The notes under the pieces: model-generated
What the model was told of the DNA's origin: nothing
Seen by the model: only the letters and a program-made list of their open reading frames with translations
Databases searched by the model: none
Assembly (NCBI GenBank): GCA_025352125.1
Contig: JANXTZ010000045.1
Location: forward strand, 783-64,782
Source of the DNA: Deinococcales bacterium
GTDB taxonomy: Bacteria; Deinococcota; Deinococci; Deinococcales; JAAFIG01
DNA length: 64,000 nucleotides
Direction: 5' to 3'
Made by a program: the position numbers and the translations under genes
In this document: piece by piece, positions 8,572-10,934 of the stretch
How the letters are laid out: every line of letters begins with the position of its first letter
Numbering within the stretch: position 1 is the first letter of the stretch

Positions 8572-8916
8572 TTACACTCCCTGCCCCGTATCCACGAGGC
8601 TTCCCGAGGAATACTCGAGACACCAAACATTGCTTGCTTCCGAACGCCAAATCTCGCAGAAGTCAATGCTCGTCAGTGCCCATCGTGGTTGACGCAACAA
8701 AGCCAAGAGTGTTTAACCCTTGGAATTTGAAACTTAAATTGTGAAGTCTCGAGAGTTCAAGACTGCTTTATTGTACGCTCGAGATAGGATTTGTCAAGGG
8801 AATTGGATTACGTTTTGGCTCGAGAAAGCTGGATTTCATTTCTTGAGTTCTTGATCGATTATCGAGAATTTTTTGCGAATTACTCAAAGGCATTGGCTGC
8901 ATGTCAAGATTAGTGT

Positions 8917-10887
8917 ATGAGACGAGCAGCAAAACCAAAACCTGCACTCCAAACTGATATAAACCATAGTCCACGTGAGCGTCTCGAAGACGATGCTTTG
9001 CAACGCACCCAATGGACGCAAGGTGTTGCAAACGCAATTCAGAACGGAAACCTTGACCCGTTATGTATTTGTTTTGACGGTTTATGGGGTAGTGGTAAAA
9101 GTACGGCTGTTAATTTTGTTTTGCAGCAGCTTCGAAGTGTAAAATCGCCACTTCTTGGTATTGCAAATCTAAACGCTTGGGAGTTGGGTGAAAATGACAA
9201 TCCAGAAAAATTCCTGCACAATGCAATGAGACTTGCCATACATTCACTTATTTTTCGATTTCTTCAGTCTCCTTCAATTTCGGGTATACGTTTAATATTC
9301 TTTTATCCATTTCTGCGTCTAGCACAAATTTCTCTCGAGCCTGTAAAAGACAATACAATGCAATCCATTGTTGGGGTTTTGACGGTTTTTGCAACATTAC
9401 TTGCAATAAAGCCCGATATTTTGCGGTCACCACTTGACCTAAAGTCTCTAACATTCTTTCAGATTATTCTAATGATTGTTGTTGCCATACCTATTTTACT
9501 TCTTTTTTGGAACATTATTTTAAATGCTTTTAACGGTTTATTAGAAAATCAATCGAAGCGGGTTTTTAAGTCAGTTATCCAAAATCTTCCTGGAAAACTT
9601 ATTATAGTAATCGAAGATTTAGACCGTATTTCACTAATCCAACTCAAGAATATCTTTCGATTGATGCAAACGAAATTTTGGCTTAGACGAGTTGTTTTTG
9701 TTTTGCCGATGTCTCGAGCAGTTGTCACAAAAATGTTGAAACATGATGGAATAGAGGATACCGATACTTATCTTGAACGGATTGTACAAATCACACTTAC
9801 ATTACCTCCTATTTATCCAAGCGACTTAAGGAACGTATTGAACGAGCAGTTAACGCAGATTTTACCAGAGCTTTATTCGATTTTGAGCATTGATAATTTT
9901 TTTAACGATTCGTTTCGTAATATTTCTGATTTTTTTACAGATTTGCGTAGTGTCAATCGCTTTCTTCATGCTTTGTCTTTTACAACTGGTGCCCTCCGAA
10001 AAAATGGAATTCTTGAGGTGAATGCCCGAGATCTTGTTTTAGTCGAATTACTGCGTCTTTTAGAGCCAAAAGTATACTTAAAGATTGCCGCACTTCGAGA
10101 TGAACTCGTTGGAAATTATAATATTGGCATATTTGACAGAAAACGTTTGGATATTGGTGCTGCTATTCTAAAACTTGCTGTACATCCAGAACGTGTTGAG
10201 CACATTTTGCGCCATCTCTTTGAAGTATCTGAGCGTTTGTTTGAAGTAAAACAAGGTGTAACTTTTCCAACGTTTCAACGCAGTGGATCGCAACGAATTG
10301 AGAGCACGGCATTTTTTGATCTTTATTTTCTGCATCTTGAGCCTCAAACAAGTTTTGGTTTATATCAAGAACTTATTGCCACAACACAAGGACGATTTGC
10401 AGGAAAACTTGAATTTAAAGATGCGTTTAAAAATATCCTTAAAACTGAAAGTAATCACAGAATTGCATTTCAAAATTTAGAAACAACGTTTTTAAATTTT
10501 AATCATAGTACAGATAATGTAAATATTGTTGCAGAAGCACTTAAAGAACTCGAATTTGAACTTGATCCGGAAGATCTAATAAACTTGTGCCGTTTAACAG
10601 TGGAATTTCTACAACACCACAGTAATGCTGTAAATCTTGGCTTAAGTTTGTTTGGCAATACAAACAAGTTAAGTATGATTCACGGCTTCCTATTACATAA
10701 CAATCATGGACTTTCTGAATTAACTATTCCACCATATTCAGCGCAGCACAAAAACGCACGAGATCAACTCAAATCAACTTGGCTTCGACTTTTCGATGAA
10801 GCTGAACAAACGGGTGCTCTCATGCAAATTCCTGAAACTAAACGTGAATATCTGACTTCGTTAAAAAATATTGTGTATGAAGTTTAG
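8917..10887 (+). CDS. KAP-family P-loop NTPase with membrane helices inserted in the NTPase domain
   Basis: Walker A GLWGSGKST. Hydrophobic helices follow (IVGVLTVFATLLAI, FFQIILMIVVAIPILLLFWNIIL) ahead of Walker B LIIVIEDLDR. The gene is visibly AT-rich and has only 2 CTCGAG in about 2 kb. Confidence 0.7.
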   Translation: MRRAAKPKPALQTDINHSPRERLEDDALQRTQWTQGVANAIQNGNLDPLCICFDGLWGSGKSTAVNFVLQQLRSVKSPLLGIANLNAWELGENDNPEKFLHNAMRLAIHSLIFRFLQSPSISGIRLIFFYPFLRLAQISLEPVKDNTMQSIVGVLTVFATLLAIKPDILRSPLDLKSLTFFQIILMIVVAIPILLLFWNIILNAFNGLLENQSKRVFKSVIQNLPGKLIIVIEDLDRISLIQLKNIFRLMQTKFWLRRVVFVLPMSRAVVTKMLKHDGIEDTDTYLERIVQITLTLPPIYPSDLRNVLNEQLTQILPELYSILSIDNFFNDSFRNISDFFTDLRSVNRFLHALSFTTGALRKNGILEVNARDLVLVELLRLLEPKVYLKIAALRDELVGNYNIGIFDRKRLDIGAAILKLAVHPERVEHILRHLFEVSERLFEVKQGVTFPTFQRSGSQRIESTAFFDLYFLHLEPQTSFGLYQELIATTQGRFAGKLEFKDAFKNILKTESNHRIAFQNLETTFLNFNHSTDNVNIVAEALKELEFELDPEDLINLCRLTVEFLQHHSNAVNLGLSLFGNTNKLSMIHGFLLHNNHGLSELTIPPYSAQHKNARDQLKSTWLRLFDEAEQTGALMQIPETKREYLTSLKNIVYEV

Positions 10888-10934
10888 GTACACGTCGTCT
10901 CAAGCAATTAGCCAACTTCTGATACCCTAAAACC

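Follow-up and report, generated by a model that had tools for sequence, protein, structure and literature searches.

KAP-family NTPases have been tied to conflict systems since 2004, and one of them, PifA, has been known since the 1980s; it excludes phages T7 and T3, with gp1.2 or gp10 as its trigger and a membrane permeability lesion as the outcome. As summarised in PMC13001434, T7 infection of cells carrying PifA is reported to lead to membrane depolarisation and nucleotide leakage. More recently, a study in Enterococcus faecalis examined four KAP NTPases that are encoded as single genes and carry uncharacterised C-termini, and all of them proved to be antiphage (2026, PLoS Biol, PMC13552941), and the protection conferred by EF_KAP requires its Walker B motif as well as its C-terminal region (PMC13552941). 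In this study we describe a relative of these proteins in an uncultured Deinococcales bacterium (assembly GCA_025352125.1, contig JANXTZ010000045.1, positions 783 to 64,782), in a stretch of 64,000 nucleotides that we call the window. The gene lies beside rpoB at 8917..10887 on the + strand, is the single open reading frame (ORF) in 8572-10934, and encodes a PifA-related P-loop NTPase of 656 amino acids. Very likely its product is a KAP NTPase carried in a cassette context, and we infer, with moderate confidence, that its most likely role is single-gene defence against phages or other mobile elements; the trigger and effector step proposed below are inferred as well. Defence by a single KAP gene is already known, and this gene adds a new and divergent member, which has a clade-specific C-terminus, occupies a well-defined hypervariable slot and comes from an unusual lineage and habitat.

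An earlier note on this DNA, made from the sequence alone, had recognised the KAP hallmark of two Walker motifs with hydrophobic helices between them, and the profile, motif and hydropathy analyses all bear this out. The Walker A motif GLWGSGKST (nt 9079..9105, residues 55-63) and the Walker B motif IIVIEDLDR (nt 9601..9627, residues 229-237) are exact, and the Pfam profile KAP_NTPase (PF07693) scores 90.1 bits over its positions 7-290 of 293 (cutoff 20, E 2e-25). W57, G58, G60 and K61 of Walker A and D236 and R237 of Walker B are invariant across 85 relatives, and every residue invariant among these is kept in the window protein. Among defence profiles, the best match is that of PADLOC for PifA (PDLC02361; 100.5 bits, E 2.4e-29), the family that the earlier note had named, and three orthologues and paralogues of the window protein match it as well. 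The other PADLOC matches, QatA and PDC-S20, are also defence families. Membership in either was rejected, since the matches are weak P-loop likenesses confined to the N-terminus (for QatA, 25 bits in PADLOC and 14.8 bits in NCBIfam against a cutoff of 600); no QatB, QatC or QatD gene lies near the window gene, which has rpoB and a GNAT acetyltransferase gene as neighbours instead. Between the Walker motifs are two hydrophobic stretches, at residues 150-169 and 172-209, with Kyte-Doolittle 19-residue means peaking at 1.94 and 2.93. An AlphaFold2 model built with the 85 relatives, with a mean predicted local distance difference test score of 80.2 and a predicted template-modelling score of 0.74, forms a P-loop core from strands at residues 49-54, 80-86, 227-233, 259-265 and 292-295. 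In this model a four-helix insert at residues 96-222 (9202..9582), with helices at 96-117, 121-137, 145-163 and 175-222, separates the second core strand from the one that bears Walker B. The two most hydrophobic helices, whose cores at residues 146-169 and 172-209 resemble transmembrane segments, fall inside this insert. A comparable hydrophobic insert is present in 59 of 78 PifA-like relatives. Transmembrane helices inserted within the NTPase domain are given as a KAP-family trait by Aravind et al. (2004, Genome Biol 5:R30, as cited in PMC13552941), and with its predicted insertion the window protein appears to share this trait. The C-terminal half of the model is all-helical, and profile comparison and model together delimit a helical C-terminal region at residues 400-656 (10114..10884).

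The window protein resembles F-plasmid PifA in having the same KAP domain in a single polypeptide, with the NTPase followed by a helical C-terminal half. The two share 23% identity over residues 50-387 (E 7e-14), and profile alignment by hhalign gives a probability of 98.3%. They differ in that F PifA has 740 amino acids and is encoded downstream of pifC in a plasmid pifC-pifA operon, whereas the window gene is chromosomal, has no pifC and encodes 656 amino acids with two transmembrane-like helices. A group of PifA-like KAP proteins of about 740-780 amino acids that bear transmembrane segments (P0008-P0155) is homologous to the window protein over residues 18 to about 500 and shares with it DxLxR, WGxGK, DR, P297, R344 and R348. 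However, identity to this group is at most 25%, and its members match the PifA model in full length while the window protein does not. The model was calibrated with F PifA itself (963 bits, positions 2-718 of 720), and the nearest outgroup relatives match it end to end (235-283 bits, positions 3-717). When 1.84 billion representative proteins were searched exhaustively with the profile, 13,892 relatives appeared at E<=1e-3. Full-length matches among them were limited to the window protein and P0004; the remainder cover about residues 18-500. In a word-indexed search of 5.8 billion proteins the clade had just four members, with identities of 100, 93, 78 and 37%. Profile-profile comparison of the C-terminal region taken from residue 400 shows collinear homology over residues 415-640 (probability 95.8%, E 7e-9). 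Compared with PifA-like relatives, the region is shortened by about 100 residues; residues 415 to about 500 are shared with these, and the last 150 or so are private to the four-member clade.

The second line of evidence concerns the origin of the gene. The earlier note had pointed out that its DNA is AT-rich compared with both neighbours and carries only two CTCGAG palindromes in 1971 bp, against 5-8 per kb typical of the window, and both observations are accurate. The ORF has a GC content of 36.4% and a third-position GC content (GC3) of 26%, against 52.5% GC for the rest of the window and a GC3 of 56-67% for its neighbours, and in sliding windows of 1971 bp the GC minimum of the entire 64 kb falls at 8951. 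CTCGAG occurs 422 times in the window (6.6/kb), with two copies in the ORF, at 9334 and 9713, which corresponds to 1.0/kb as compared with 6.8/kb outside. At the outside rate 13.3 copies would be expected in the ORF (Poisson P(<=2) = 1.7e-4), and the 1971-bp windows with three or fewer copies are solely those that overlap the KAP gene. The excess of CTCGAG is common to all related Deinococcales loci (3-8/kb; L001-L024 and L034-L036 in our numbering of loci) and is not seen in a Deinococcaceae metagenome-assembled genome (MAG; L025, 0.29/kb), so that the palindrome can be used as a marker of native DNA. Its depletion in the ORF holds only relative to the approximately 25-fold enrichment in the host, because the base composition of the ORF itself predicts 0.22 copies, and the 2 observed amount to an enrichment of about 9-fold. 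This enrichment is among the points that speak for a different explanation, in which the gene is native and ancestral and owes its odd composition to gene-specific constraint or mutation bias, not to horizontal acquisition. We regard this as unlikely, in part because the GC3 of the gene is the most extreme of about 60 window genes (0.26; the next lowest is 0.38). As an observation in its own right, CTCGAG is by far the commonest hexamer of the window (422 copies against 16.5 expected, the next palindrome having 48), and in its behaviour it resembles the highly iterated palindromes known from cyanobacteria. We searched the literature for its abundance in Deinococcales without finding anything relevant.

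How long the gene has been in place can be judged from its orthologues. The reading frame is intact, at 656-659 amino acids, in three lineages, and the ratio of nonsynonymous to synonymous divergence (dN/dS, Nei-Gojobori) is 0.19-0.21 at a dS of 0.15 in comparison with L003 and 0.59 in comparison with L005; the gene is under purifying selection. Between the window and L003 a contiguous alignment of 93.4% identity runs from 8185 to 10982 through the 5' end of rpoB, the intergenic region and the KAP gene, which indicates that gene and flank diverged together. The most distant KAP haplotype, L005, has the gene at the same position with a flank identity of 89% and a different synteny downstream of the GNAT gene. 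Since the orthologues occupy the same site and their flanks are equally diverged, the KAP gene predates the split of the three sublineages, and most likely it was lost or replaced in L009, L034 and L036. The "recent foreign origin" proposed in the earlier note therefore stands only as regards "foreign": composition and the variable slot favour a foreign source, while a dS of up to 0.59 at the same site with a dN/dS of about 0.2 lends no support to a recent arrival. The shared site and matched flank divergence also speak for a native gene. A drift toward host GC was considered and rejected for the window lineage, in which polarised substitutions run 39 from GC to AT against 8 from AT to GC; this AT-richness, maintained and not erased, also favours the native explanation. 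Against it, L009, L034 and L036 hold other genes at the same boundaries, none of the other Deinococcales loci that we examined has the KAP gene, and full-length relatives number only four among billions of proteins, with one of these coming from a mobile setting. Unlike the window lineage, the L003 lineage shows balanced substitutions (13 versus 16; 8917-10884 compared). The orthologues carry 2, 3 and 5 copies of CTCGAG against about 0.2-0.27 expected, with one site common to all three, which suggests that KAP orthologues may have gained the host palindrome slowly and in a lineage-specific manner. The same comparison bears on the idea that the gene is a decaying, non-functional remnant. The C-terminus is indeed shortened relative to PifA-like relatives, and the + strand of 8825-8916 showed no strong promoter of the sigma-70-like type. 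Nevertheless, the frame is intact and constrained in three lineages over considerable divergence, all family-invariant residues are kept and the AlphaFold2 model is confident, and we consider such decay very unlikely.

Comparison with close relatives shows that the gene occupies a slot of variable content. The rpoB gene lies on the - strand with its start codon ending at 8571, and the KAP gene is divergent from it, as the earlier note stated, and ends 47 bp before the GNAT gene (10935..11492, +; Pfam Acetyltransf_3, 6e-19), whose native appearance holds up (GC 51%, 7.2 CTCGAG/kb). Homology on the rpoB side, as determined by blastn, breaks off at 8824 in L009, 8815 in L008, 8849 in L034 and 8800 in L036, and on the other side it begins again at 10923, which is 12 nt ahead of the start codon of the GNAT gene. 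The homology limits of all haplotypes define a replaceable cassette at about 8825..10922 (+), which in the window holds the KAP gene only, with 92 nt on its 5' side and 35 nt on its 3' side. To its left is the conserved upstream flank of rpoB (8572..8824, -), comprising leader and promoter region and recognised by blastn breakpoints, promoter scan and CTCGAG content. This flank carries the native signature, given its four CTCGAG sites, and contains a promoter-like site for rpoB (TTGACA-16-TACAAT, 8797->8770; scan 11/12), just upstream of which the homology limit is situated. To the right, the 5' end of the GNAT gene (about 96 nt) together with the 12 nt upstream of it (10923..11030, +) forms the homology limit of the slot in comparison with relatives. 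The junctions recur in three independent assemblies, which argues against an assembly chimera. Loci anchored on rpoB assign the window to uncultured Deinococcales MAGs, in four of which the N-terminus of RpoB is 99.5-100% identical.

Between these flanks we found at least six different slot contents in close relatives. The KAP gene is alone in the window, L001 and L002; in L003 and L004 it is accompanied by a 191-aa ORF, fragments of a DDE transposase and an AAA_14/DUF4143 ATPase, and in L005 by the same ATPase. L009 has instead a C5 DNA methylase with a 1002-aa HATPase protein and a 572-aa Response_reg_2 protein (30-44% GC), L034 and L035 an AT-rich 99-aa ORF with an MBL-fold protein, L036 a 327-aa tandem GNAT protein, and L008 an unmatched sequence of 398 nt at a contig end. 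The AAA_14/DUF4143 ATPase of L003 and L005 matches the PADLOC candidate system PDC-S01 with 261 bits. Its cassette holds no recombinase gene, and on its flanks the 5' end of the GNAT gene (window 10923-11030; about 108 nt) recurs in direct orientation. L003 has three such copies (2751-2810, 4758-4865 and 6120-6227) and L005 has copies at 2258-2365 and 3787-3894. Further copies lie at 3295-3375 in L009 and 1232-1339 in L036, two loci in which remnants of the cassette persist, and the copy junction ...GGCATGGTG|GTTTGTGAAGT is identical across three genomes. An empty site, with rpoB directly beside the GNAT gene, was not found among the rpoB- and GNAT-anchored loci recovered, a thin sample. A scan of metagenomes with the GNAT protein returned unrelated organisms of 65% GC only, which were of no help for synteny. 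A repeat search showed neither inverted nor direct repeats at the ends of the KAP cassette, so that it is not delimited as a transposon, and Rfam and tRNA scans in and near it returned nothing, hence neither a tRNA-targeted island nor a known RNA element. The earlier note also remarked that the gene lies where many bacteria have rplJ-rplL, and this does not carry over to Deinococcales: neither gene is upstream of rpoB in nine other genomes of the order, each of which has a different gene there (AccD, S2, peptidase S41, DnaJ-like and others).

What these occupants do is relevant to the role of the KAP gene. Our preference for defence rests on four considerations, namely that the profile affinities are all with defence families, that a homologue lies in a mobile context, that defence or candidate-defence genes are found in the slot and beside rpoB in another genus, and that KAP proteins provide a precedent. 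The defence-type genes are the PDC-S01 ATPase, the C5 methylase module of L009, and an AbiU gene at rpoB in L017, a locus from another genus with an RpoB N-terminus 81% identical. This AbiU gene (8014-9738; 574 aa, a full-length match of 417 bits) is the immediate upstream neighbour of rpoB, reads in the same direction, and has a GC content of 31% in a background of 57-63%. The homologue is the 37%-identical KAP protein of L006, whose gene has a GC content of 52.6%, near that of its host, and 1.5 CTCGAG/kb against 8.0/kb. It is divergently paired with the gene of a 1920-aa HTH_upst_double_PIN protein, the pair lying at 1199-6961 and 7291-9309, in a region that also encodes two integrases, ParA and a RecQ-like helicase and is, from its gene content, probably an integrative element. 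The same homologue, in its integrase- and ParA-rich setting, could be taken to mean that the KAP NTPase is cargo of mobile DNA with a role unrelated to phages, such as competition between elements, plasmid exclusion or an NTP-dependent membrane signalling assembly. This alternative, which we consider rather unlikely, gains from the facts that some slot occupants are not evidently defence genes and that phage restriction may not be the primary function of PifA (PMC13552941). It is weakened by the window cassette itself, which has no mobility genes and, as the earlier note had seen, is a single gene with no conserved partner, by the best profile matches being all to defence families (PifA, QatA and PDC-S20), and by the antiphage activity of all four of the single-gene KAPs tested (PMC13552941).

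The comparison with those four is by description only. EF_KAP and the three metagenomic KAPs have, like the window protein, a transmembrane helix in the NTPase domain and a C-terminal region without a recognisable domain, and they too form one-gene systems in variable loci associated with mobile DNA (PMC13552941). They differ in coming from Firmicutes gut bacteria and in being linked to small serine recombinases, which the window cassette lacks, and EF_KAP has an additional N-terminal transmembrane helix. A one-gene membrane defence described in PMC13001434 likewise has transmembrane helices in a P-loop NTPase, but its P-loop family differs and gives no profile match from the window protein.

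Several findings weigh against defence of the PifA kind and should be considered together. The best stretch listed for the window protein corresponds to positions 170-347 of the 720 in the PADLOC PifA model, with the C-terminal half unaligned. The pairwise alignment stops near residue 356 of F PifA, and we take the whole aligned part, a second reported stretch included, to fall within about the first 350 model positions. The C-terminus taken from residue 480 alone gives no profile-profile signal against the relatives, so the part of the protein that would provide specificity or effector function appears to be without demonstrable homology beyond about residue 500. On the basis of the half-model match and the C-terminal comparison, we do not regard the window protein as a strict PifA; it is a divergent side branch of the PifA-like KAP NTPases with a shortened C-terminus. 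F PifA itself has no transmembrane insert, its maximal 19-residue hydropathy there being 1.27 with a shorter spacing between Walker A and Walker B, and it is described as being without transmembrane helices (PMC13001434). Foldseek against the PDB gave only generic likeness to AAA+, ORC, Cdc6 and RFC proteins and to RdrA, with template-modelling scores of at most 0.3, for which reason the C-terminus is assigned no domain; a sequence search of the PDB with the family profile gave no match. Searches for relatives in the INPHARED phage and IMG/VR collections came back empty, which leaves no viral vector to be named. The MBL-fold and tandem-GNAT occupants of the slot, with weak or no PADLOC matches, are not evidently defence genes. 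Finally, EF_KAP, the one KAP defence protein so tested, is not abortive at high multiplicity of infection (PMC13552941), so the effector step cannot simply be carried over.

Weighing these points, we still favour single-gene defence and propose that the ancestor of at least three sublineages would have acquired a one-gene cassette of foreign composition, which was then kept by purifying selection. The cargo of the slot may have been exchanged by homologous recombination in the conserved flanks, which is the simplest account. In the protein, the helical hairpin between Walker A and Walker B would hold the NTPase at the inner membrane, and a phage product would be recognised by the helical C-terminal region. 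Binding or hydrolysis of NTP would then drive a response at the membrane that stops phage multiplication, comparable to the permeability lesion and nucleotide leakage caused by PifA. By analogy with PifA, a permeability mechanism in particular can be put forward only as a tentative and somewhat doubtful possibility. If antiphage activity is confirmed, single-gene KAP defence would be extended to Deinococcota from glacier-fed streams, and a membrane-inserted, C-terminally distinct relative of PifA would become available for mechanistic comparison. The locus is also a clean natural example of a hypervariable slot, in which the host CTCGAG serves as an internal marker of the residence time of foreign DNA. 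Neither the KAP gene nor the slot overturns current understanding. We also entertained a bolder and, in our judgement, improbable view in which the slot is a cassette-shuffling platform dedicated to this CTCGAG-rich Deinococcales lineage. Cassettes may then pile up serially, with a stretch of about 108 nt copied from the GNAT 5' end to mark every one of them, and the KAP clade with its private C-terminus may be a new type of membrane effector and not a PifA. On the same view, the AT-rich AbiU gene beside rpoB elsewhere would suggest that placement by the RNA polymerase operon is itself selected.

Some further features of these loci are worth recording. With the AbiU gene of L017, an AT-rich gene for single-gene abortive infection is found next to rpoB for a second time and independently. 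The AT-rich three-gene module of L009 extends over 3582-9404; its C5 methylase has 367 amino acids (PADLOC MTase_II, 293 bits), and its 1002-aa protein has an N-terminal HATPase_c_3 domain followed by HEF_HK and HATPase_c domains. The module looks like a methylase-linked conflict system that may be built on a kinase and receiver pair. L009 also encodes a putative endonuclease of the Uma2 family at 1881-2441 (PADLOC PDC-S03, 62 bits), between the GNAT gene and a threonine-synthase-like PALP gene; it is absent from the window, where the GNAT and PALP genes abut at 11489-11492. In L008, the sequence at 1-398 has a 91-aa ORF without a Pfam match and a tandem repeat whose imperfect units, 99-184 and 162-247, are 77% identical. 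In the window, the genes next in AT-richness to the KAP gene are two toxin-antitoxin-like pairs, one consisting of a HigB toxin (18416-18742) and an HTH_3 protein (17980-18441), and the other of a PIN-domain protein (34934-35371) and an HTH_26 protein (35368-35811).

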